Shown here: in pieces, positions 13,175-63,093 of the stretch
How the letters are laid out: each line of letters starts with the position of its first letter
How positions within the stretch are numbered: the first letter of the stretch is position 1
Source: Candidatus Yanofskybacteria bacterium
Lineage (GTDB): Bacteria > Patescibacteriota > Minisyncoccia > 2-02-FULL-40-12 > GWA2-44-9
Assembly (NCBI GenBank): GCA_020847715.1
Contig: JADLBM010000007.1
Span: 8,624 to 72,623 of the forward strand
Reading direction: 5' to 3'
Length of the DNA stretch: 64,000 nt
Notes under the pieces: generated by a model
What the model was told of the DNA's origin: nothing
Databases searched by the model: none
What the model saw: only the letters and a program-made list of their open reading frames with translations
Program-made: the position numbers and the translations under genes

Positions 13175-14017
13175 ATGTCGGACAACCACAACGACAATCA
13201 GGTCCACGACTGGCGCTACTGGGCCGAAATGGGAAAGAAGCAGAAGGCCGCCGAAGGAGGCTCTACCGCCCCCGGCAATGAGGCCATCGTTGAAATCCGA
13301 CCCGGCGCCGGCGGTGATGAGGCGGCGCTGTTCGCCATGGAGTTGTACCAGATGTACTGCAAGTATGCGGCGCTCAAGGGATGGCGCACCTCGACCATCG
13401 ACTCCAATGAAACATCCCTCGGCGGATTGAAGTACATTTCATTCGAGATGTCCGGCGCCGGAGCCTACGACGCCATGAAGAACGAATCGGGCGTACACCG
13501 TGTCCAGCGCGTCCCCGACACTGAAAAATCCGGCCGCGTCCATACCAGCACCGTTACGGTCGCAGTCCTCAAGAAAGCAACCGAGCAGGAAGTAAACATC
13601 AACCCCAACGATATCGAGGTCACCTTCTCGCGCGCAGGCGGCCCGGGCGGCCAGAATGTGAACAAGGTGGAAACTGCCGTCCGCGTCCATCACAAGCCCA
13701 GCGGCATCGTGATTTCCGCACGCGAAGAGCGCTCCCAGCTGGCGAACCGCGAACGAGCCATGGAAGTGCTCCGCACCAAGCTCGCAGAGCTCCACCGCCT
13801 CGAGCAGACTGGCAATGTCACCGAAGAGCGGCGCAAGCAGGTTGGCACGGGCGACCGGAGTGAGAAGATTCGTACCTACAACTTCCCACAGGACCGTATC
13901 ACCGACCATCGTATCAAGGAGAGCTGGAGCAACATCCCGAAGATCCTCAACGGAGATTTCGACCGCATTGTGGTTGCCTTGCAGGAAGGCCTGAAGGATG
14001 GTAGTACGGCTGCATGA
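13175..14017 (+). CDS. prfA: Peptide chain release factor 1 (short N-terminus, 280 aa)
   Basis: GGQ motif ([12 protein letters not shown]) and RF1-type tripeptide region [18 protein letters not shown] (PxT, not SPF). Confidence 0.8.
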
Positions 14018-15762: not shown

Positions 15763-18700
15763 TTAGCGCTCGTCCTGAGAGCGGCGGAAGAACCACCACC
15801 AGATAAGAATCGCCAGCAGAATGAGAAGCAGAATCCACCACGGGAACGACACGCCGAAGAGCTGACCGATGGCCGCAACTTGGTTATTGCCGGAACCATC
15901 ATCAACGGCCGATGGCGTGGGAGTTGCCGATGCTGACGAGGTACCCCCAAGTTCATCGCCTGCCAGGCCGCCGAGCGTTGCATCGTTCACTCCACCGCCC
16001 TGGCCACCTCGGCCGCCACCGGTCGGAGGAACGGGGGTCGGAGTCGAGCCGCCGCCAGTCGAGCCGCTCTGGCCACCGGAAGGGGGCGGGGTTGTCGTCG
16101 GTGTCGGGGTCGGGCTGTAGATAATGCCGCCACCGCCTCCACCGCCACCATTATCAGAACCAAGTGATGTATTCGTCGGCGTAGGACTCGGCGAAGGCGA
16201 CCCCTCAATATCCCCATCATCACTGTGGTAGGTGTTGGTAATCGTGCAGGTTGCTTCGTCGCCCGATGAGAGCGAGACGCCGCCCTGCCAGCACGCCTCA
16301 TCATACGATGCGACATAGCTCGCAAGATTCGGCGACTCGGTGATGTCGTGATCACCGGCCGCAATCGTGTACCACTGGTTGTGGGTCACCAGCATGCTGT
16401 CGACGTAGAGCGAAAAGTCGGACGAGGCGAGCTCACCGAACGCGCCGTTCACAACAACCTTCCGAACGCGGAGGAGCGGAGAGACCTCCCCTTCGCCGTC
16501 ACACCATCCTGCGGACTCGTCATGAGATGCCGATGTCTGGAACGGAATGGTCGAACCGTATTCATCTCCCGACGGAACCGTCGCCTGTACCATCAGCTGC
16601 TCACCCGGATGTTCACCGGTCTCAATGTAGACCGACTCACCCGCCGGAACGATACCGTATCCGCTCTCGCCGGGACCCGAGCTGATGGTCCAGTCGAAGG
16701 CCAGCGGGAAATCGTTCGGATTGTAGATGCGCCAGCGCCAGGTCCCTTCCACATCGTTACTGCAGACCGAGCTCACTTCCAAGTACTGCGTCGGAATGAC
16801 CTCTGTGCTGTGGTTCCCAAAGTCTAAGCCGCTCACCGGCTGACCCTCCGGCACCACCGAATGACACCCCGGAGCCGCAGGGTAGGTCTGCACCCAGCCC
16901 TCCTGCTGCGCCTCGCAGACGAGCACCTCCTGCGTTGCGCTTGAGATATCAATGGAGTAGTTGCCGTAGCCATCTGTCGTGTCAGTACCAATGAAGCGGT
17001 AGAGCTTCACGGTCAGCGAGCCATAGTTGTCGCCATACCAGCTCGGGTTGACCGTATTGCTCGCCGCATCACCGTCGAAGATGCGGAAGTTCACAGTTCC
17101 TCCCGACGAAGTGAATGTACGCGCGTAGGCGTGGCTATCGGTGTATGCACCCCAATCGCCGAACTGCTGGGCAATCTGGAGCTCGAGGATGCCATCACCG
17201 TAGCCCGTGAAGCCGTCCATATGCGATGCCCACGTGTCTTCGGTCGAGTACTCGGTATCCACGAGGTTGAGCGGCGAACGGCGATTCTCCCAAGTGCCCG
17301 TCGCAACTGCGAGGTACTCGCCCGCAGGAAGCTCGGAGCTGTTGATGCCTGCGGGGTCAGATGACGGAACCGTCAATGTTTCAACATACTCGTAGGCGTT
17401 GATGGTCCAGTCCGCCAATCCGGCATCCTCCTCACCCTTCTGTCCGTCGCCGTTGTGGTCGCTGAACTTCTGGCCGGAAACCGTTGGCGACGGTGTCGGC
17501 ACCGGATCCGGACCGTCGTTCACGATGGTGAAGGTCTCCTGCGAGCTTTCCACCGCAACCGATGTGAGGCCGCTCATATTCGTCCATCCGTCCTGTTGAA
17601 CCTCATCCACCGTGTAGTTTCCCAACGGAACGCCCTCGAAGGTCGCGCACCCGTTCTCACCGCCGGTCGTACCGAGGTAGCCGGGGTAAATATCAACGGT
17701 AAGACTACCTTCGTTGTTCTGTGGGTATACATCGTTCAGCGTGAATGCCACCGCACTTCCCGTACCCGTGAACGGGATGGCGTAGGTGTGCCCGCTGAAG
17801 TAGGAACCCCAGTCGGGTGAAGCGCCGTTGACCTGCAGGTCAAGCAGCTCCGCTCCATAACTCTCATAGTTCTGTACCAGGTCGGTCCATGTCGTGTTCG
17901 GCGCGCGCACTGAGTACTTCGCATCCGCAGTGATGCCATCGTTCGCCCAGTAGGTGCCGTGCGCAACGAGCACATACGACTCGCCGCTCGTGAGCGCCGT
18001 CGAAGAGGAGACCGCAATCGGAGTGCCGCTTCCGCTGTACGCGGGCACGGTGACGGTTTCCAGTTTCTTGCCCAGTAGCATGACGCGCCATCCGGCCTGC
18101 GGGACTTCATCTTCATCCAACTTACATACATTCACGGTTGCCGCGATGGGGTCAGGACCGTCGTTCACGATGGTAAAGGTCTCCTGCGCATCGTCCACGG
18201 TCGCCTCGCCAAGACCGCTCACATTGACCCAGCCATCCTGCTGGATTTCGTCAACCGTGTAGCCGCCTCGAGGAACATTGTTGAACACCGCACATCCATT
18301 CTCGCCGCCGGTCGTGCCGAGGTGACCCTCATAGATATCAACGGTCAGCATCCCGCTATTGTCGCCGTAGGCACTATCGAGGATGCGGAAGTCTACCGGA
18401 CCACCGGCCGTCGTATACGCCTGCGCATAGCGGTGGTTCGTGTTAAAGATATCGCCCCAGTTGTGCACGGTCTGCCCACCTACCAGCAAGCTCAAGTATC
18501 CCGTCCACGGAGCGGCAAAGGTGTTGCCGTTCGCCCACGGCGCGTAGGCGCCAAGCGTGTTGCCGGTGTAGTATCCGGTCTCTCCCGCCTGCCGCTTCGA
18601 GAACGCCGCATCAGCGTCGGTCGCATTCGGATCGCTCGGGCGATACGAATAGGTGCCGTTCGCGATGAAGACATAACTCCCCGATGCGAGCGAGTCCGAC

Positions 18701-20631
18701 ACATGAACTGCACCATCGGCAGGCACGGTCACCGAGCCAACATGATTCCCCAACAGCATCACCTGCCAACCGGACTGCGGCTGCTGATGTTCGTTCAACT
18801 TACACACACTCACCGTCGAAGGCGGCGTCGGCTCGAAGTCGAACGTCGTGGTGTGCGTATTCAAGCCCGTCTTAATACCGACGACTACCTTGTCGAGGTT
18901 CTCAGTGTATCCGTCCGGATACGGCTCACCAACACGAATGCCAAGAAATGCTCCGGTCCCAAGAGTACGCACTGAGGGATAATCAGAGAGAATCTGACTC
19001 CACGTCTTTGGCGTTGAACCCGGCTGACCGGTTACTGGCCACGTCGGACCGGAATACCGCCAGAGAGCAGTTCCACCGTTGATGGCATCCCACTCCTGCC
19101 AGGTGTCTTGGGCGATAGCGCCATTGTCCGCAGGGAGGAATGTGAGGCGCCGCTGCCATGTATTCGCTCCCGTGAAATCTACATTGAATTGCAGGTAGCC
19201 GGAGCGGTTCGCGCTGCCGCCGTTGCCCGCGGAGGGGTTGTAGGTGCTGTATTTCAGCGACGTGATATCCGCGAGCATAACTCCGCCATACCTCGAAGTC
19301 GCCAGATTGCGGCGCTGCGAACTCGACACGCTGATTTGCACGCTCCCGTCGCCCAGCGGCGCGGTAGCGGGGCCGCTCACGAACGAACCCAGCGTATTGT
19401 CGGTAACATCGGTCTCATCGTTGTAGAGATACCACTTCCCTGAGTCCGTATAGGCGGCCCCCAAGTCTTCGGCACGCACCACGATAGTTTCGGAAGACTG
19501 GGTCGGCTGCGCGCTATACGTGTTCGTGATGATGCAGGTCTTATTATCGCCGACCGCCAACACGACATTCCCATTCTCATCACAGTCATTGGAGAATGTC
19601 GGCGTAAAACCGGCTACCGCATCCTCGCCCACCGTGTACGTTCCCGCGGACAACACAATCGGCGAGTTCTGTGGCACCGGAGATGCTGATGGCGATGCCA
19701 CCGAAGCGAGTGTCAGCTGGAAGTCCGCTGGAACAGCATTAGTTTCTCCCTCAACATGCTTAATAAGTGTGAGCGACGGCGCAAGGTCGTCGTTCGTGAT
19801 GGTGCACTCGTACACCTGGCCGTATTCCGCATCCGTGTTCAGCGAGCATCCCTGGTATTCAGCCCGATAGCCAGGCGTCTCGTCTTCAACGACTGCAAAA
19901 GTCGCAGTGCCGATAGTAAACTCTTGGAACTCTGCGGAGGTCGTCGCATGCACATCGGCCATATCCGGCTGGGAGATGGTAAACCCGAAGTCATCAGCCC
20001 CCTTCGTGCCGCCATTGTCGTTGATAACAACCTTTCGGACCTTCAGCTTCGGACTCGGGCAGTCCTTGTGAAGATCAACTTGCGCAGCATGGATCGTGGT
20101 CCCAGGATTCGGGTCAAAATTACTCAGCGGTCCTGAGCTGTACAGCCAAAAACCCGCGTGATCATCATTCGAGACATCGAGGCGAACTGCAGTAACCGTC
20201 CACCCATTACTTCCGCTCACATCAATCTTCTTGTCATCACTCTTGAAGTTGATGTCCACGATCGCATCAGAAAAATCGGACGCCTTCTCATAGGTCGCAT
20301 CTCCGCATGTCGGTAGCGGAGGAACAACGCAGCCATTGTTGTAGATTCCCTGGCCCTCAGCATCCCAATTACGCCCATTCTGGTCCCATGACCCAGGCGG
20401 AATAATGTCCTTACCACTCGCGTGGTTGTTATTATTGTGTCCTGAGCCAGACTCGACCGAACTCTCACTGACCGTCTGCTGTTGATATGAACCCCCGCCA
20501 GTATAGTGGCAGATCGTCACGGTGCCCACCGTAGTCGCCAACGCCGGCAACGGGACAAATGATGTCGCCACCATCGCGAAGATGGAGAGCGAGGCGACGA
20601 AACGGTTGATACGATGTGCGGTGCTTTTCAT
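15763..20631 (-). CDS. Giant secreted/cell-surface protein (1622 aa): signal peptide, repeated beta-rich modules, Gly/Pro/Thr-rich linker, C-terminal TM anchor
   Basis: Single 4.9-kb ORF; N-terminal signal (FAMVATSFVPLPALATT); modules VCKL(N/D)E..QaGW.VMLLG...LTVDIY.G.LGTTGGENGCA.F..VP.G.YTVDE.QQDGW.N.SGL...ETFTIVNDGPDP repeated; C-terminus FPWWILLLILLAILIWWWFFRR; the antisense ORFs listed inside it are rejected. Confidence 0.8.
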   Translation of the reverse strand: MKSTAHRINRFVASLSIFAMVATSFVPLPALATTVGTVTICHYTGGGSYQQQTVSESSVESGSGHNNNNHASGKDIIPPGSWDQNGRNWDAEGQGIYNNGCVVPPLPTCGDATYEKASDFSDAIVDINFKSDDKKIDVSGSNGWTVTAVRLDVSNDDHAGFWLYSSGPLSNFDPNPGTTIHAAQVDLHKDCPSPKLKVRKVVINDNGGTKGADDFGFTISQPDMADVHATTSAEFQEFTIGTATFAVVEDETPGYRAEYQGCSLNTDAEYGQVYECTITNDDLAPSLTLIKHVEGETNAVPADFQLTLASVASPSASPVPQNSPIVLSAGTYTVGEDAVAGFTPTFSNDCDENGNVVLAVGDNKTCIITNTYSAQPTQSSETIVVRAEDLGAAYTDSGKWYLYNDETDVTDNTLGSFVSGPATAPLGDGSVQISVSSSQRRNLATSRYGGVMLADITSLKYSTYNPSAGNGGSANRSGYLQFNVDFTGANTWQRRLTFLPADNGAIAQDTWQEWDAINGGTALWRYSGPTWPVTGQPGSTPKTWSQILSDYPSVRTLGTGAFLGIRVGEPYPDGYTENLDKVVVGIKTGLNTHTTTFDFEPTPPSTVSVCKLNEHQQPQSGWQVMLLGNHVGSVTVPADGAVHVSDSLASGSYVFIANGTYSYRPSDPNATDADAAFSKRQAGETGYYTGNTLGAYAPWANGNTFAAPWTGYLSLLVGGQTVHNWGDIFNTNHRYAQAYTTAGGPVDFRILDSAYGDNSGMLTVDIYEGHLGTTGGENGCAVFNNVPRGGYTVDEIQQDGWVNVSGLGEATVDDAQETFTIVNDGPDPIAATVNVCKLDEDEVPQAGWRVMLLGKKLETVTVPAYSGSGTPIAVSSSTALTSGESYVLVAHGTYWANDGITADAKYSVRAPNTTWTDLVQNYESYGAELLDLQVNGASPDWGSYFSGHTYAIPFTGTGSAVAFTLNDVYPQNNEGSLTVDIYPGYLGTTGGENGCATFEGVPLGNYTVDEVQQDGWTNMSGLTSVAVESSQETFTIVNDGPDPVPTPSPTVSGQKFSDHNGDGQKGEEDAGLADWTINAYEYVETLTVPSSDPAGINSSELPAGEYLAVATGTWENRRSPLNLVDTEYSTEDTWASHMDGFTGYGDGILELQIAQQFGDWGAYTDSHAYARTFTSSGGTVNFRIFDGDAASNTVNPSWYGDNYGSLTVKLYRFIGTDTTDGYGNYSIDISSATQEVLVCEAQQEGWVQTYPAAPGCHSVVPEGQPVSGLDFGNHSTEVIPTQYLEVSSVCSNDVEGTWRWRIYNPNDFPLAFDWTISSGPGESGYGIVPAGESVYIETGEHPGEQLMVQATVPSGDEYGSTIPFQTSASHDESAGWCDGEGEVSPLLRVRKVVVNGAFGELASSDFSLYVDSMLVTHNQWYTIAAGDHDITESPNLASYVASYDEACWQGGVSLSSGDEATCTITNTYHSDDGDIEGSPSPSPTPTNTSLGSDNGGGGGGGGIIYSPTPTPTTTPPPSGGQSGSTGGGSTPTPVPPTGGGRGGQGGGVNDATLGGLAGDELGGTSSASATPTPSAVDDGSGNNQVAAIGQLFGVSFPWWILLLILLAILIWWWFFRRSQDER

Positions 20632-21194: not shown

Positions 21195-22061
21195 TTATGG
21201 ATGAATACGGTCCGCCATGAAGAGGCGGCATTTTGCCTCGACCACATCCCGCACGGCGTCGGCCGCCGGCCCAAGGTATTGATACGGGGTCGTCTGGTCG
21301 GGATGCTCGACCAGCTCCTTTTTGAGCTCGCGCTGGTATGCAACGCGAAGCTCGGTGTTGAAGTGCACATTCGTGATACCCGCACGGATAGCGTCAGCAA
21401 TAGGCGCGTCCGGAAGACCTGATGCACCGTGCAAGACGAGATAGGTATCGGGAACGGCCGCGGCGATAGCGGCGAGATGGTCGATATCGAGCTCTTCCTT
21501 TTGCTCGGTCACAATGCCGTGAATGTTCCCGAATACCGGTGCAAGCCGCTCAACACCGGTGCGGCGTACGAAATCGGCCGCCTGTTCCGGCTTTGTGTAG
21601 TCCTCGCGGCTCACCGCTACGCGCGTCTGGACTTCCGAACTCCCACGAAGATGCCCTAGCTCCGCCTCTATCATGTAGGAGCCGCGTTTCGTCTGGGCGT
21701 ACTGCCACACACGCTGAGTCTCGATGACATTCACCTCATAGGCAAGTCGCGAGCCATCGAACAGCACGGAATCGTATCCGGCGTCGATAGCCTCTTTGCA
21801 TGCCACGAAGGATTTGAAGTGGTCGGCGTTCAGGAACACGGGAAATCCGGAAGCTGCCCGTACCGCATGCACGAGCGCCACCGCCTCTCGCATACCCAGA
21901 AACCCCGCCTCCCCTTCGCTTGTGCCGACAATGACGCACGGAGCACCGGCATGCGTCGCGCCCTCAACAATGGCGCGGAGAACATCGGGCGTGGCGAAAT
22001 TGAAATGGCCAATGGCCCATCGCTCCGCCTTCGCCTGTGCGAAATAGTCTCGCAACATCAT
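21195..22061 (-). CDS. fba: Class II fructose-bisphosphate aldolase family protein
   Basis: WAIGHFNF...LNADH...VLHGASG...NVHFNTE, typical of class II FBA/tagatose-bisphosphate aldolase. Confidence 0.85.
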   Translation of the reverse strand: MMLRDYFAQAKAERWAIGHFNFATPDVLRAIVEGATHAGAPCVIVGTSEGEAGFLGMREAVALVHAVRAASGFPVFLNADHFKSFVACKEAIDAGYDSVLFDGSRLAYEVNVIETQRVWQYAQTKRGSYMIEAELGHLRGSSEVQTRVAVSREDYTKPEQAADFVRRTGVERLAPVFGNIHGIVTEQKEELDIDHLAAIAAAVPDTYLVLHGASGLPDAPIADAIRAGITNVHFNTELRVAYQRELKKELVEHPDQTTPYQYLGPAADAVRDVVEAKCRLFMADRIHP

Positions 22062-34473: not shown

Positions 34474-34526
34474 CGATCACCTCCGAAGCTCCTCTATACC
34501 ATACGGATGTGGTAAAATCAACCTGC

Positions 34527-35771
34527 ATGTCCCGCACTGTAATCAACGCAATCCACGCACGGGAGATTCTCGACTCGAGGGGGGTGCCGACACTTGAAGT
34601 GTCGGTCGTCTGCGAGGGCGGGAGTGGCACATTCGGCGTACCATCGGGTGCATCCACTGGTACTCACGAGGCCGTCGAACTGCGGGACGGCGACGCAAGT
34701 CGCTACGGCGGCATGGGAACCCTCAAGGCGGCAACCCATGTGAACGTAAATCTCGCCGGCGCACTCATCGGCATGGACGCGCGTGACCAACGCGCACTCG
34801 ACGAGCGCATGCTCGCCATGGATGGCACGCCGAACAAGGCAAAGCTCGGTGGCAACGCCATTGTAGGCATCTCCATCGCCGCCGCGAAGGCAGCCGCCGC
34901 CGCGCTCCAAGCACCGCTTGTCGACTACCTACACGCCCTCGCGCCGGACATCGCCCCATCTGCGACCGGCCGGCGCATGCCATTTCTCGGCATGAACCTC
35001 ATCAACGGCGGGAAGCACGCCGCGACCCGTCTTGCATTCCAAGAGTACAAGCTGGTACCACAGACCAACGACGTCACCGAGGCGCTCGACATCGGGACGC
35101 GCATCATGCACGCCCTCAAGAAGCGCCTCGTGCGGGACCACGGCGCCGTGCATGCGAATGTGGGCGACGAAGGCGGTTTTGCCCCCGACCTCGCGTCGGT
35201 GCGCGCGCCGCTCGCACTCCTCATGGAAACTGCCGCCGAACTCAACCTCGACCACCGCATCAAGCTCGCCATGGATGTCGCCGCGTCCTCGTTCTACGAT
35301 GCAGCGACCGATCGCTACACCTACGACGGCACAGAGCACACCGCAACAGAACTGGAAGAGGCCCTCCGCGGCATGCTCCGCGACTTCCCCTTTCTCTACA
35401 TCGAAGATCCGTTCCATGAGAACGCATTCGCCGATTTCGCACGGCTCAATGATGGCTCGACCGTCATCGTCGGCGATGACCTTACCGTCACGAATACAAC
35501 GTTCCTAAAGCAAGCCATCGAACAGAAGTCTATTTCCGGCGTTATTATTAAAGTAAACCAAGTTGGCACGCTCACGGAAACGCTCGACACCATGAAGCTC
35601 GCACGCGACAACAGCATCGAGTGCATCGTGAGCCACCGCTCGGGAGAAACGAATGACGATTTCATCGCAGACCTTGCGGTTGCGTTTGGGGTCTTCGCAG
35701 TGAAAGCCGGAGGCCCTCAGCGCGGCGAGCGCGTCGCAAAGTACAACCGATTCCTGAAATTGCTTGCATGA
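34527..35771 (+). CDS. eno: Enolase
   Basis: VINAIHAREILDSRGVPTLEV...; canonical enolase motifs (SHRSGETED-like IVSHRSGETND). Confidence 0.95.
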   Translation: MSRTVINAIHAREILDSRGVPTLEVSVVCEGGSGTFGVPSGASTGTHEAVELRDGDASRYGGMGTLKAATHVNVNLAGALIGMDARDQRALDERMLAMDGTPNKAKLGGNAIVGISIAAAKAAAAALQAPLVDYLHALAPDIAPSATGRRMPFLGMNLINGGKHAATRLAFQEYKLVPQTNDVTEALDIGTRIMHALKKRLVRDHGAVHANVGDEGGFAPDLASVRAPLALLMETAAELNLDHRIKLAMDVAASSFYDAATDRYTYDGTEHTATELEEALRGMLRDFPFLYIEDPFHENAFADFARLNDGSTVIVGDDLTVTNTTFLKQAIEQKSISGVIIKVNQVGTLTETLDTMKLARDNSIECIVSHRSGETNDDFIADLAVAFGVFAVKAGGPQRGERVAKYNRFLKLLA

Positions 35772-36085
35772 AGTGGCTCCTCCCGCTCAGCATCCTCATA
35801 CTCTTTGAGCTGATTGCTGATATTGTGGCGAAGAAGTGGTCGCTTGTTGGCGGCTCGCTCCTTGCGGCCGGTGCACTTGCGGCATACCTGGCGGCAAATA
35901 CATTCTGGCTGTTTGCACTTCACAACGGTTCCGGCTTGGGCCGTGGGGCCGTCATCTTTTCGGTCGTATCTGCACTCCTTGCAGTAGTGATTGGCGTCGG
36001 TATGTACAACGAATCCATTACTCGCATGCAGACCATCGGATTCGTCTTCGGCATCGCATCTCTCGTGCTCATCTTTTGGGAGTAG
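35768..36085 (+). CDS. Small four-TM membrane protein (SMR/EamA-like)
   Basis: 105 aa with four hydrophobic helices; start overlaps the eno stop. Confidence 0.5.
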   Translation: MKWLLPLSILILFELIADIVAKKWSLVGGSLLAAGALAAYLAANTFWLFALHNGSGLGRGAVIFSVVSALLAVVIGVGMYNESITRMQTIGFVFGIASLVLIFWE

Positions 36086-36103
36086 CGATGGTATAATCCT
36101 GCT

Positions 36104-36916
36104 ATGCCAACCCGAACACAGATCGTCTGCACTATCGGTCCCGCCTCGAAGGAACCCGCCGTACTCGATGCGCTCATCGCGCACGGGATGGATGTGGCAC
36201 GGCTGAACTTCAGCCACGGCACCCACGACGAGCACCGCGTACTCATCGAGAACATCCGCGCCGCTGCGCAGCGTGCCGGACGCGTCATCCCCATCATCCA
36301 AGACCTCTCCGGCCCTCGCGTGCAGACCGGTAGCGAGCATCACATGGACCCGAACGCGGTACAGGTTATCACAGAGAAAGACCTCACTGACCTCGACTTC
36401 GGTCTCTCGCAGTGGGTTGAGTATGTATGCCTTTCGTTCGTCGGCTCCGCGAAAGACGTAAACGACCTACGTGCCGAAATTGCCAAACGAAACGGTGGCG
36501 TTCCTGCCGAAAAAGGGTTGCCGAAGGTGATGGCCAAGGTCGAGCGAAAAGAAGCGCTCGAGAACATCGAAGAGATTATCACGGCAAGCGATGCCATTAT
36601 GCTCGGACGCGGCGACCTCGGACAGAACATTCCGCTCGAGCAGGTGCCGTTCGCTGAGGCGCTCGTCGTGCACCACTGTAAAGAGCATCGCACCCCCGTC
36701 ATTGTCGCGACTGAAATGCTCAAGAGCATGGTAGAGAATCCCGAGCCGACCCGCGCCGAGATTACCGACATTGCCTACGCCATTATTCTCGGCGCCGACG
36801 CGGTGATGCTCTCCGAAGAAACAGCCCGCGGGAAATACCCTGTCGAGGCCGTTACCTACATGGAACGCGTCTGCACAGAGGCCGAGAAGTACGAGCGCGA
36901 CGTGAACGCGCTCTAA
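36104..36916 (+). CDS. pyk: Pyruvate kinase-like protein, A (TIM-barrel) domain only (270 aa; no B lid or C-terminal domain)
   Basis: PK motifs TQIVCTIGPAS, QDLSGPRVQTG (cf LDTKGPEIRTG), KVERKEALENIEEI...IMLGRGDLG, MLSEETARGKYPVEAV; TATAAT immediately upstream of the ATG. Confidence 0.7.
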   Translation: MPTRTQIVCTIGPASKEPAVLDALIAHGMDVARLNFSHGTHDEHRVLIENIRAAAQRAGRVIPIIQDLSGPRVQTGSEHHMDPNAVQVITEKDLTDLDFGLSQWVEYVCLSFVGSAKDVNDLRAEIAKRNGGVPAEKGLPKVMAKVERKEALENIEEIITASDAIMLGRGDLGQNIPLEQVPFAEALVVHHCKEHRTPVIVATEMLKSMVENPEPTRAEITDIAYAIILGADAVMLSEETARGKYPVEAVTYMERVCTEAEKYERDVNAL

Positions 36917-36946
36917 GAAAAAGCCCCCGACAGGGTCGAAGGCATG

Positions 36947-37453
36947 TTACTCTGAGATGTCCGTCCGTTCATGGAGGCGCTTGATGCGCTCGTTCGTGCC
37001 GGTAGCGTCGGTACTGTACCGCCAGTCCCAGCTGATGGCTCGGAGCTGGCACAGTCCGCGGAGAACCGCGCGCCTTCCCACCCACTTCGCCGCCTGAACA
37101 TCGGCAGGATGCTCACAGGCAATCTCGTCGGCAAGCGTCGCGTACTGCCCCAGACCGCACGCTCGCTGAGGATGCGCAAGCTCATGAGCGAACATGCCTT
37201 CGAGCGCTTCGCGATCCATCTCCTCCAAGAGAATCGGGCTCACGATGATGGCAACAATGTTGTCTCGAACTCGCGTCCTCGTGTCCACGATGCCCCGTGC
37301 TCTCCACGCCGGTGCCACCGCAACAACGACGCGGTATTCCAGTCCGTATGACCGCGCCTGCGCCTGCACCCGCTCGGTGAGCGCGGTGTCGATGTGGTAC
37401 AGCTCGTTCACTCCGGCAAGCGCAAGTACGACTGCAAGCAGTGCGTGCCCCAT
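36947..37453 (-). CDS. Putative secreted zinc metallopeptidase (HExxH: FAHELAH)
   Basis: N-terminal hydrophobic signal/anchor, HELAH motif followed by GLG. Confidence 0.5.
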   Translation of the reverse strand: MGHALLAVVLALAGVNELYHIDTALTERVQAQARSYGLEYRVVVAVAPAWRARGIVDTRTRVRDNIVAIIVSPILLEEMDREALEGMFAHELAHPQRACGLGQYATLADEIACEHPADVQAAKWVGRRAVLRGLCQLRAISWDWRYSTDATGTNERIKRLHERTDISE

Positions 37454-37455
37454 GA

Positions 37456-38010
37456 TTACCTCCGGCGATGTAACCGCGGCAGGCGCTCATCGATGAGCCG
37501 GCGGCGAATCTCGGCAAGCGCCTGCGCTGCCATGTGGAGATGCATCCGATGATACGCAATCAGCGCCGCCTCCACCGCAGCCGGACCCGCATAGCGGGCG
37601 GCCTCATGGTCCACAGCGGACTCGCACGAGATGTACTCCTCCAAGCTTCCGAGGCTCTGACAGGTTACTCCGAGCCCCATGTGGGCAACCTCGTGTGCCA
37701 CAAGGCCACTGAGCGCGAGCTCGCTGAACGTCGAGGCCTCGAACTCTTCGCTGTAGATAGCCACCACGCCGACACCCTTGATGGGATCGGTCGCGAACAC
37801 GGGCGAGAAGCGTCCTTCGGGCTGCCGACAGCGTACGAGCCGCTCGGTGACGCCAGCCGTTGCGAAGTGCTTCGCGAAGAGTCGCTCGACACGATTGGCC
37901 GGATCGGACTCCTGAACAACACACGGAGGGCTCCAGAAGTACTGCGCGCCGGGTTTCATCGCTTCTGCCGGTGTGATCTGCAGGAGTAGGACGGCAATGA
38001 GTCCGAACAT
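37456..38010 (-). CDS. Putative secreted zinc metallopeptidase (HExxH: VAHEVAHM), paralog of the downstream gene
   Basis: Signal peptide; HEVAH + GLG; same architecture as 36947-37453. Confidence 0.5.
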   Translation of the reverse strand: MFGLIAVLLLQITPAEAMKPGAQYFWSPPCVVQESDPANRVERLFAKHFATAGVTERLVRCRQPEGRFSPVFATDPIKGVGVVAIYSEEFEASTFSELALSGLVAHEVAHMGLGVTCQSLGSLEEYISCESAVDHEAARYAGPAAVEAALIAYHRMHLHMAAQALAEIRRRLIDERLPRLHRRR

Positions 38011-43355: not shown

Positions 43356-45005
43356 CTAGTCAGTGCGAATATGGGCGAGCGCCCATGCACGATCAACATC
43401 TATCTTCTTGCCTGGATTGAAGATGCCCTTCGGGTCGAACAGCTGTTTCACCTGCCGGAACAGGTCGTACATCTTCGGTCCAAACTGCTTCCGCACCCAT
43501 GGACCACGAATAAGCCCGTCATTATGCTCTGCGGTAATTGAGCCGTGGTACTCGAGCACCAAGTCGTACACCTTCTCCGAGAGCTCTTCGATAACCTCTT
43601 TTGTCCGCGGAGCGGCAAGGTCCATGAGCGGGATGATGTGGAAGTTCCCGTTCCCTGCATGGCCTTGGATTGTCAGTGTTAGTCGGTATGGCTCAAGGAG
43701 TGGGTAGAGTTTTCCCAGAAACTCCGACACGAGCTCGACAGGCACGACGATGTCGTCGATGAATGGCACAGTCCGCTTCCCCGTCGTGTGGTGTCGAATG
43801 ACATTGAACGCCTGCCGACGAATGGTCCAGTACTTATGACTCTCCTCGGGACCGCTGGTCATACGCGCCTTGAGGTTGCGGCTCTTCAGTGCAGCAAGCG
43901 CAGCTTCGGCGCGCTTCGCCACCTCGCTCTCCACATCACCGGCAAATTCGGCCATTAAGACCAGCTTCGGCAATCCGCCGGTGAGCGTCATCCACGCTTC
44001 GGGGAGGAACTGGAGCCCCAACGAGACAATGTTCGACGCTCCCATGATGCGCACGAAATCCGGCAGGAATCGAACCGTAAATGAGAGCGTCTTGTCGTCG
44101 AACGATTCAAGAGACTCTGGCTCGAACGCAAGCAGGTCCTCCACCACCGTCGCAAGATACGGCAGGTCGCGTAAGAATGCGATAACCATACGCCGGTACT
44201 GTGGCGGCCGGATAAGTCCAAGAGTCGCCTGCGTTACAACGCCCAATGTTCCCTGCGAGCCGACCATCAGCTTTGTGAGATCGAAGGTCGTTCCGTCCCA
44301 CACGCGCCAAAGGTTGTATCCCGACGCGTTCTTACTGACCCTCGGATGATAGCGCTCAAGAAACTCCCGATGCTCGGTAACCAATTTCCACATCGCGCGG
44401 TAGAGATCCCCCTCGAACCCGACGCGACTCATTTTGTACTGCACACCACCGAAATCGAGCGGCTCGAATATGTATTCATTCCCGTCGGCGAGCACTGCAC
44501 GACATTGCCGCACCCAATCAACCGCCTGCCCGTACCGGAGCGTTCGTTCCCCAGCGGAATTGTTGGCAACCATGCCGCCGAGCGTACAAAGGTCGCGAGA
44601 CGCGGGATACACAGGATACTGCAGACCGCGCGCGAGTGTGGCGCGTTCGAAATCCCGATAGTACATCCCCGGCTGCACAATTGCGCTCCCGTCGTGGCCT
44701 CGGACCGCTTCATCACGGTTCACATCGAGCAGCCGGTTCAGGTGCCGCGTCATATCAAGAATGACTGACTCGCCGACCGCTCCTCCCGACATATCAGTAC
44801 CGGCACCCCTCGCTACCAGCGACACGCCACGATGCTCCGTCGCATAGCGCACCAGCGCACCGATGTCCTCGACACTCGTGGGAGCAACAACGACCTGCGG
44901 GCGCACTTCGAAAATGCTCGCATCGTGGCTGAACGCAGCCCGCGTAGCATCGGTGTCATCCACATCACCGCAACGAAGCCCTCGGAGATCGTCGGCGAGA
45001 CTCAT
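43356..45005 (-). CDS. FAD-linked oxidase (GlcD / D-lactate dehydrogenase-like)
   Basis: FAD-binding PCMH-type N-terminal domain (VVAPTSVEDIGALVRYATEHRGVSLVARGAGTDMSGGAV) plus C-terminal oxidase domain. Confidence 0.8.
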   Translation of the reverse strand: MSLADDLRGLRCGDVDDTDATRAAFSHDASIFEVRPQVVVAPTSVEDIGALVRYATEHRGVSLVARGAGTDMSGGAVGESVILDMTRHLNRLLDVNRDEAVRGHDGSAIVQPGMYYRDFERATLARGLQYPVYPASRDLCTLGGMVANNSAGERTLRYGQAVDWVRQCRAVLADGNEYIFEPLDFGGVQYKMSRVGFEGDLYRAMWKLVTEHREFLERYHPRVSKNASGYNLWRVWDGTTFDLTKLMVGSQGTLGVVTQATLGLIRPPQYRRMVIAFLRDLPYLATVVEDLLAFEPESLESFDDKTLSFTVRFLPDFVRIMGASNIVSLGLQFLPEAWMTLTGGLPKLVLMAEFAGDVESEVAKRAEAALAALKSRNLKARMTSGPEESHKYWTIRRQAFNVIRHHTTGKRTVPFIDDIVVPVELVSEFLGKLYPLLEPYRLTLTIQGHAGNGNFHIIPLMDLAAPRTKEVIEELSEKVYDLVLEYHGSITAEHNDGLIRGPWVRKQFGPKMYDLFRQVKQLFDPKGIFNPGKKIDVDRAWALAHIRTD

Positions 45006-62031: not shown

Positions 62032-63093
62032 TTATTCGCGGAGCTGATGACCGGTAAGGTTCAGGAAAACATCCTCGAGCGACGGGCGCTTGAGAGTCAG
62101 CGAACCGATAGCAAATCCCTGCGTGCGTCCTGCACCGAAGAGATCGTCGAGCGTATGGCGAGGCTGGGCTGTCGCAACGAAGTGAGTGCCGTCCTCGTGG
62201 CGAACGGAGCGAACCTCGCGAAGACCCGCCAGCAGTGTCTCATCCACCTGCCGATCGCTCGTGAACTCGATAATCGCATCGCCCCCATGAGCGGCTAGAA
62301 GGTTCGCGGTCGTGTCGAGCGCCACAATGACACCGTGGTCCATAACCGCGATCCGGTCGCAAAGAACCTCGGCCTCGTCCATGTAGTGCGTTGTCAGAAC
62401 CACAGTCGTCCCGCGTGCATTCACCTGCCGCACTAAGTCCCACAGATTGCGGCGCGCCTGCGGGTCGAGTCCAGTGGTTGGTTCATCCAAAAAGAGAACG
62501 ACCGGCTCATTCACGAGTCCTACCGCGATGGAAAATCGCTGCTTCTGCCCACCGGACAGCTCATTCACTTTGCTCGTTGCCTTTTCCTGCAACTGCACAT
62601 CAGCAAGGAGAGCGTCCGGATCAACGGTGCGATCGTAAAACGAAGCGAACAATATCAGCGTCTCGCGAAGGGTAAGCCCGTCGAAGAAGGTGCTCGCCTG
62701 CGGCTGCACTCCGATACGATGCTTCACCGCATTGGCCTGCGTCGCAACGTTGAGTCCGTCAATGTGAATAGAGCCGGAGGTCGGATTACGGAGCCCCTCA
62801 ATCATCTCGAGTGTCGTGGTCTTGCCAGCTCCGTTCGGGCCGAGGATGCCAAACACCTCTCCGCGGCGGACGGTAAACGAAATGCCCGCCACCGCCGTGG
62901 TGGTGGCATAGCGCTTCACCAAGTCTGCGACTTCAATAACGTCTGCGCTTCCCATAGGGACAACCGAATGTCCGAATGCCGCCGCAAGATGCGCGGTCGT
63001 CCAGCCGGCATCAGCAAGCGCACGGGCAGCCTCGGCCATGGTCATGCCTGCGTTTGCCGCGTCAGAGAGATATTGTGCGAGCGGAGATTGCAT
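62032..63093 (-). CDS. ABC transporter ATP-binding protein (ABC-2 partner) with about 45-aa N-terminal extension
   Basis: Walker A GPNGAGKTT, signature LSGGQKQR, Walker B LFLDEPTTGLD. Confidence 0.9.
   Translation of the reverse strand: MQSPLAQYLSDAANAGMTMAEAARALADAGWTTAHLAAAFGHSVVPMGSADVIEVADLVKRYATTTAVAGISFTVRRGEVFGILGPNGAGKTTTLEMIEGLRNPTSGSIHIDGLNVATQANAVKHRIGVQPQASTFFDGLTLRETLILFASFYDRTVDPDALLADVQLQEKATSKVNELSGGQKQRFSIAVGLVNEPVVLFLDEPTTGLDPQARRNLWDLVRQVNARGTTVVLTTHYMDEAEVLCDRIAVMDHGVIVALDTTANLLAAHGGDAIIEFTSDRQVDETLLAGLREVRSVRHEDGTHFVATAQPRHTLDDLFGAGRTQGFAIGSLTLKRPSLEDVFLNLTGHQLRE

Follow-up and report, generated by a model that had tools for sequence, protein, structure and literature searches.

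A short pyruvate kinase (PK) gene is located on the forward strand of a 64,000-nucleotide stretch of contig JADLBM010000007.1 from Candidatus Yanofskybacteria bacterium (hereafter, the window; plain coordinates refer to it). The coding sequence (36104..36916, +) starts with ATG, includes the stop codon and encodes 270 amino acids, exactly as claimed in an initial annotation made from the sequence alone, which had read the product as a minimal PK consisting of the catalytic barrel only. In textbook PKs, a lid (B domain) closes the active site of the barrel (A domain) and holds the nucleotide, while a C-terminal domain (C domain) serves regulation and tetramer formation. We found that the window PK is the catalytic (beta/alpha)8 A domain of such an enzyme, and that its B and C domains were lost by evolution.

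The Pfam family for the PK barrel, PF00224, matched the protein with E=1.4e-76 and 258.1 bits (cutoff 30). The match is made up of two stretches, between which the profile positions of the B domain (roughly 80-170) are skipped. The N-terminal barrel segment (residues 1-76; 36104..36331, +) carries T10 and P13 of the nucleotide pocket, R33, N35, S37 and H38 of the RLNFSHG motif, and D67; it matches residues 5-79 of the Mycobacterium tuberculosis PK and, by tblastn, full-length PKs. The C-terminal barrel segment (residues 87-265; 36362..36898, +) contains K145 and E147 (KVER), D171 (GDLG), T203 and S237/E238/E239 (MLSEET), and pairs with residues 170-337 of the M. tuberculosis enzyme and with PK profile positions 172-328. 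This enzyme (5wrp) also gave the best sequence alignment in the PDB, in which residues 2-76 of the query align to 5-79 and residues 87-261 to 170-337. No Pfam match to the PK_C domain (PF02887) was found in the window PK, and the chain ends 9 residues past the barrel alignment, just beyond the last barrel helix, so that the annotated loss of the C-terminal allosteric domain is borne out. The AlphaFold2 model (predicted local distance difference test, pLDDT, 92; predicted template modelling score, pTM, 0.90) has the (beta/alpha)8 fold of the A domain. Domain boundaries from the Pfam alignment and the structure prediction thus agree with the initial annotation. The motifs that it had listed are all in the sequence: GPRVQTG (residues 70-76, corresponding to GPxxxTG), AKVERKEA (144-151), GDLG (170-173) and MLSEETARGKYP (235-246), the last having an R where a K had been written. 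The protein also scored 318.6 bits against TIGR01064 (pyruv_kin, the NCBIfam equivalog model for PK), above the cutoff of 306.4, and annotation pipelines therefore name it pyruvate kinase. Taken together, the window protein is almost certainly a barrel-only member of the PK family.

In place of the lid, the protein has a hinge stub, GPRVQTGSEHHMDPNAVQVIT (residues 70-90; 36311..36373, +), which includes R72, Q74 and His79 (codon 36338-36340). In an alignment of 153 sequences, the interval from G70 to T90 comprises 21 residues in the window PK, compared to 100-106 in 132 full-length PKs. Aligned to 5wrp, about 90 lid residues are exchanged for about 10 residues that cannot be aligned (77-86). 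The replacement of the lid by a short loop had been recognized correctly in the initial annotation, but the length given there, roughly 30 residues, was an overestimate. In the AlphaFold2 model, the stub forms a small beta-hairpin (E72-75/E78-81) with a lower pLDDT of 65-74. Its signature, D-L-[SP]-G-P-R-[VI]-Q-x3-4-H, is conserved in all sequences without a B domain (B-less sequences) that were examined. In PKs with a lid, R119 contacts the beta-phosphate, D177 a water on Mg-ATP and K206 the ribose (rabbit numbering; PMC8835810). In the window PK, R119 corresponds to Gln74, and D177 and K206 are without counterpart.

To map the active site, we used the human PKM2 sequence as reference, which was checked by 16 landmark residues at their published numbers. 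R33, K145, E147, D171, T203, S237 and E239 of the window PK correspond to R73, K270, E272, D296, T328, S362 and E364 of PKM2, and N35, S37 and D67 to N75, S77 and D113; the full set of ligand and catalytic residues of the barrel is therefore present. Apart from S37 (79%), none of these residues varies among 80 B-less sequences or among 132 full-length PKs. The part of the nucleotide pocket that belongs to the A domain is also kept, with T10 and P13 near 100% in the 80 B-less sequences. His77 (rabbit numbering) bounds the adenine ring (PMC8835810); at the equivalent position 38, the window PK has His and the clade either His (34%) or Trp (64%), i.e., essentially always an aromatic residue, an argument for continued nucleotide binding.

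The differences between the B-less clade and full-length PKs concentrate on the rim of the active site. Position 72 (rabbit 117) is Arg in 100% of the B-less sequences, compared to 69% Lys and 29% Arg in full-length PKs, and position 74 (rabbit R119) is Gln in 88%, compared to 100% Arg. Position 238 (rabbit G362) is Glu in 86% and Asp in 9% of the clade, while only 10% of the full-length PKs have Glu there. Position 79, in the hairpin stub, is His in 97% of the clade and has no equivalent in rabbit or other full-length PKs. A positive residue at position 117 (there Lys, together with L113) makes PKs K+-independent, and the K+-independent M. tuberculosis PK shows little lid motion (PMC8835810). 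The window PK has this pair in the form of Arg72 and Leu68 (Arg in 100% and Leu in 96% of 80 B-less sequences). The window PK is a member of the branch that is least dependent on lid closure, or a descendant of it. The co-evolving residues of that branch, Q114 and L/I/V120, were not found (S or P at position 114; T, E or D at position 120). As K+-independent PKs move their lid little, this lineage may have been able to tolerate its loss.

A search of 5.8 billion proteins returned >120 clusters of such PKs, drawn from NCBI, JGI, ENA and Logan assemblies, with 59-100% identity and nearly all 263-271 amino acids long. Their genes were found on contigs of up to 652 kb, the length of CAZBFM010000001.1 (GCA_964491455.1), and close relatives carry the database name 'pyruvate kinase [Candidatus Paceibacterota bacterium]'. 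HXK36626.1 is a close relative of the window PK. In an exhaustive HMMER scan of 1.84 billion representatives, 14 of the best 150 matches were B-less. Mean column identity among the B-less relatives is 72%, with invariant catalytic residues. For the neighbor-joining tree, the linker columns were excluded and the tree was re-rooted, since the midpoint root fell inside the long-branched B-less group. In this tree, which included all fusion forms described below and 132 full-length PKs, 20 of the 21 B-less sequences form one clade; the sole outlier (P0145) still has the linker signature. The C-terminus is equally uniform: 102 of 107 stand-alone B-less PKs (proteins P0001-P0120) end in Leu, with the consensus VNPL-COOH (36905-36913 in the window), and fusions to phosphoglycerate mutase (PGM) of the form PGM::PK end in Leu or Phe. 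As judged from these sequences, the truncation point of the family is precise and conserved. The barrel-only type is widespread in the tiny Parcubacteria within the Candidate Phyla Radiation (CPR).

Two candidate fusions were dropped. P0121 contains two lid-containing PK modules and an adenylate kinase and looks eukaryotic. In P0144, which looks eukaryotic as well, a full barrel precedes a second PK module without lid, in which the Mg ligand D296 is replaced by C; this second module is probably a pseudo-enzyme domain.

The neighborhood of the gene points to lower glycolysis. The enolase gene (eno, 34509-35771, +; Pfam Enolase_N and Enolase_C) is the upstream operon partner of the PK gene, and a class II fba is encoded on the minus strand (21195-22061); the initial annotation had named both. 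Between eno and the PK gene lies an open reading frame (ORF) for a 105-amino-acid EamA-like membrane protein (35768-36085, +), whose start overlaps the enolase stop by 4 nt. Its similarity to Pfam EamA is weak (25.2 bits, under the cutoff of 28.2). The order eno-EamA-PK is kept in an 80% identical relative (L085), where a 282-amino-acid EamA gene occupies the same slot; the two EamA-slot proteins show no significant similarity (E=0.32). On the 652-kb contig of a 71% identical relative (L081), eno and the PK gene are 8 nt apart, and the surroundings are syntenic (TrxB-PMT-SOD-TGT-RRM ... eno-PK-BipA-FAD oxidase-RNase T-Obg). In a 57% identical Paceibacterota genome (L001), genes for a D-2-hydroxyacid dehydrogenase, PK, PyrD and PGM follow in this order, the first two overlapping.

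In other genomes, the PK module is fused to its partners; the barrel-only type is always either next to its glycolytic neighbors or joined to them. L084 has a PGM gene followed by one ORF that joins a B-less PK to enolase, and B-less modules are also fused to glycerate kinase (DUF4147 + MOFRL). Fusions to a His_Phos_1 domain of the 2,3-bisphosphoglycerate-dependent PGM (dPGM) type occur in both domain orders and in at least 118 clusters (464-533 amino acids, contigs of up to 377 kb) from Ca. Nomurabacteria, Paceibacterota, Minisyncoccia, Parcubacteria and the 'Patescibacteria group'. All these partners make 2-phosphoglycerate or phosphoenolpyruvate (PEP), or consume pyruvate; this is strong guilt-by-association support for a role in the conversion of PEP to pyruvate in lower glycolysis. 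An FAD-linked oxidase gene (FAD_binding_4 + FAD-oxidase_C, GlcD / D-lactate dehydrogenase type), located two to four genes from the PK gene, is conserved in the window (43356-45005, -) and in two relatives (L081, 12731-14380; L083, 11818-13476). A connection of its product to the fate of pyruvate or lactate is conceivable. A lid or partner provided in trans was also considered and rejected: the unannotated genes for proteins of about 200 amino acids downstream of the PK gene in L083, L084 and L085 are mutually unrelated, and they are unrelated to anything beside the window PK.

Based on these partners in operons and fusions (PGM, enolase, glycerate kinase, 2-hydroxyacid dehydrogenase), we propose that the protein catalyzes PEP + ADP -> pyruvate + ATP. 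That it turns PEP into pyruvate in glycolysis is probable. Somewhat less firmly, we regard it, with ADP as the acceptor, as the constitutive, non-allosteric last enzyme of lower glycolysis in Candidatus Paceibacterota, expressed together with enolase. As in any PK, the C-terminal face of the barrel would take up PEP and Mg2+, with Arg72 providing an internal positive charge in place of K+, and ADP would sit in the retained adenine pocket. Phosphoryl transfer and protonation of the enolpyruvate would be carried out by K145, T203 and S237. We infer that the enzyme is active without a closing lid, and the tasks of the latter (shielding of the active site, grip on the beta- and gamma-phosphates and the ribose) would be either dispensed with or moved to the His79 stub and Glu238. 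Thus, the clade-specific rim residues His79 and Glu238, which is adjacent to Ser237, may partly replace the lid contacts. With the C domain, the effector site for sugar phosphates or AMP and the C-C interface of the tetramer are also missing; we predict an enzyme without regulation that is either a monomer or an A-A dimer.

Several observations weigh against this assignment. By alignment, all three lid contacts to the nucleotide are lost, and the compensation by His79 and Glu238 is proposed from conservation patterns. An open active site is expected to lower catalytic efficiency and could favor hydrolysis or another acceptor. In addition, the fusion to dPGM skips the enolase step, which would leave room for another relationship between PK and PGM. 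An enzyme assay for any B-less member was not found in the literature searched.

Such a relationship could be that the barrel uses PEP but phosphorylates the catalytic histidine of dPGM, so that PGM is primed without 2,3-bisphosphoglycerate and pyruvate is formed without ATP. Loss of the lid would then have served to open the active site to a protein substrate, and PGM priming may exist besides the kinase role. Human PKM2 reportedly phosphorylates H11 of PGAM1 as a PEP-dependent histidine kinase, acting as a monomer or dimer and not as a tetramer (PMC11183095), and the loss of the C domain should bar canonical tetramers in the B-less PKs. In one fusion (P0140), the mutase motifs RHGESEWN and SHGN are intact. 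The AlphaFold2 model of one PGM::PK fusion is confident overall (pLDDT 91.4, pTM 0.87), which suggests a fixed packing of the PK and PGM domains. If true, PGM priming would account for both the loss of the lid and the frequent fusion to dPGM, and bacteria would have a hard-wired counterpart of the PKM2-to-PGAM1 His11 reaction reported in human cells. However, the window PK is a stand-alone protein and no PGM is encoded in the 64-kb window, and the fusions to enolase and glycerate kinase fit plain pathway clustering. Moreover, the adenine pocket is under selection (T10 and P13 near 100%, position 38 always H/W), which is hard to explain without a nucleotide. We therefore consider PGM priming to be unlikely.

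Drift of the barrel to a side activity, such as PEP phosphatase, oxaloacetate decarboxylase or another 2-oxo-acid reaction, seems to us equally improbable. No variation is seen in the full PK-specific phosphotransfer set, to which R33, K145 and the adenine pocket belong, and the association with the PEP-making enzymes PGM, enolase and glycerate kinase is steady. By standard glycolytic stoichiometry, a fermentative CPR cell that wasted the phosphate of PEP would presumably lose half of the net ATP from glycolysis.

Only the unusual length would speak for a frameshift, a misassembly or a decaying fragment of a pyk pseudogene, and we effectively exclude this explanation. The same architecture is present in >120 independent clusters from four sources and on long contigs, and the deletion keeps the reading frame and has a conserved motif in its place. 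When six full-length PKs were used as tblastn queries, only the two barrel segments were found in the 64-kb window, with no remnant of a B or C domain in any frame and no second pyk. The frameshift that the initial annotation had named as a possible refutation was thus not observed. Finally, an HpcH/HpaI-type aldolase or citrate-lyase beta-like lyase mis-called as PK, the other refutation considered there, can be rejected with near certainty. In its favor is a Pfam match to PF03328 (28.3 bits) just over the cutoff of 25, but this family is not the best-scoring one by sequence and structure. The interpretation given in the initial annotation is therefore supported, and its description is correct apart from the loop length and the single residue mentioned above.

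The gene had also been described as leaderless, with TATAAT directly upstream of the ATG, and the sequence basis for this is right. An extended -10-like element, TGGTATAAT (36089..36097, +; TG-n followed by TATAAT at 36092-36097), ends 6 nt before the ATG and is a candidate leaderless promoter. A promoter scan that required a -35 element found no full -35/-10 promoter 5' of the window PK gene. Similar arrangements precede the gene in two relatives: GGTATACT-N6-ATG in L083, where the upstream gene is divergent, and TTTAAT-N7-ATG in L081, where the element lies inside the end of eno. Of 38 window genes, only about 8 are preceded at normal distance by a Shine-Dalgarno-like motif, and several by a TANNNT hexamer 6-8 nt 5' of the start codon, e.g., the FAD-linked oxidase gene (43356-45005, -), 62032-63093 (-) and the PK gene. 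These patterns suggest that leaderless mRNAs are common in this genome, and a leaderless PK transcript is plausible; co-transcription with eno is equally possible.

On the other side, a convergent gene ends 30 nt past the PK stop codon. A GC-rich hairpin between the two (36923..36943), detected in a terminator scan, has a T-run on the minus strand only and is therefore mainly a terminator for the convergent gene. This gene (36947-37453, -) and the following one (37456-38010, -) encode paralogous proteins (27% identity, E about 5e-7), each with an HExxH motif (HELAH, HEVAH). Neither had a Pfam match; they may be small zinc metalloproteases.

Two further ORFs of the window are worth recording. 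Just 3' of rpmE (L31), a 280-amino-acid release-factor ORF (13175-14017, +) matches RF-1 and, of the PCRF domain, the C-terminal half only. A prfB-style programmed frameshift was considered and dropped, as no CTTTGA site was found upstream; the short N-terminus of this class I release factor thus appears to be genuine. A 1622-amino-acid ORF (15763-20631, -) contains SpaA-type prealbumin-fold domains and probably encodes a large surface or adhesin protein.

When the window PK is compared with other PKs, four architectures can be distinguished. The A+B+C form is found in most bacteria, including Gracilibacteria, Saccharibacteria, Doudnabacteria, Buchananbacteria and some Parcubacteria. Unlike the canonical K+-independent enzymes of this form (M. 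tuberculosis PykA, 5wrp; Geobacillus stearothermophilus PK, 2e28), the window PK has neither B lid nor C domain; its clade has Arg instead of Lys at position 117, deviates from the Q114 and L/I/V120 signature, and carries the clade-specific His79 and Glu238. The A+B form (NF005234/PRK06739, about 352 amino acids; P0162 and the Saccharibacteria protein of L069, both 350 amino acids) is likewise a natural case of C-domain loss, but it keeps the lid, and the window PK scores only 200.2 bits against the NF005234 equivalog cutoff of 564. The A+C form is represented by a Dehalococcoidales PK of 380 amino acids (L003; 142-1284 of CAZBQL010000004.1, a metagenome-assembled genome). In this protein, the barrel is also split into two stretches by a very short connector in place of the lid. 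However, it keeps PK_C (130.7 bits), its connector DLPGYKRRSGG does not have the GPRVQ...H signature, and it is 40% identical. Judging by these features, its lid was probably lost separately, outside the CPR; L003 was not included in the tree. The A-only form comprises the Paceibacterota clade, stand-alone or fused. The PGM::PK and PK::enolase fusions of Parcubacteria (P0140, P0305 of Ca. Nomurabacteria, P0139) have a PK module of this clade, likewise without B and C domains, and share its linker signature, whereas the window PK is a separate protein encoded near enolase. The Entamoeba histolytica PK 8iw2 is short as well (321-residue chain, 22% identical to the window PK); with 235 residues aligned, the remaining 86 are compatible with a retained B domain, although this is a guess.

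No paper in the literature searched was found to describe a natural lidless PK, the domain architecture of CPR PKs or a PGM-PK fusion. CPR surveys record pk merely as present or absent (PMC4508563, PMC7304191), and the enzyme has been called patchy in them (PMC7304191). The B-less PK is thus known to databases as 'pyruvate kinase', a name that conceals its odd architecture, while the architecture and the fusions appear to be unreported.

If active, this large and conserved family without lid and C domain would represent a central enzyme reduced to its minimal catalytic unit. It would reveal to what extent the mechanism of PK can shrink, which would be useful for enzyme design and for understanding the contribution of the lid. 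The common PGM::PK fusion is a ready object for studies of channelling or of PEP-dependent PGM priming. Parcubacteria live by fermentation, and an active B-less PK would settle whether many of them have a complete, ATP-yielding lower glycolysis. The architecture further suggests that glycolytic flux in Parcubacteria is unregulated at the PK step.
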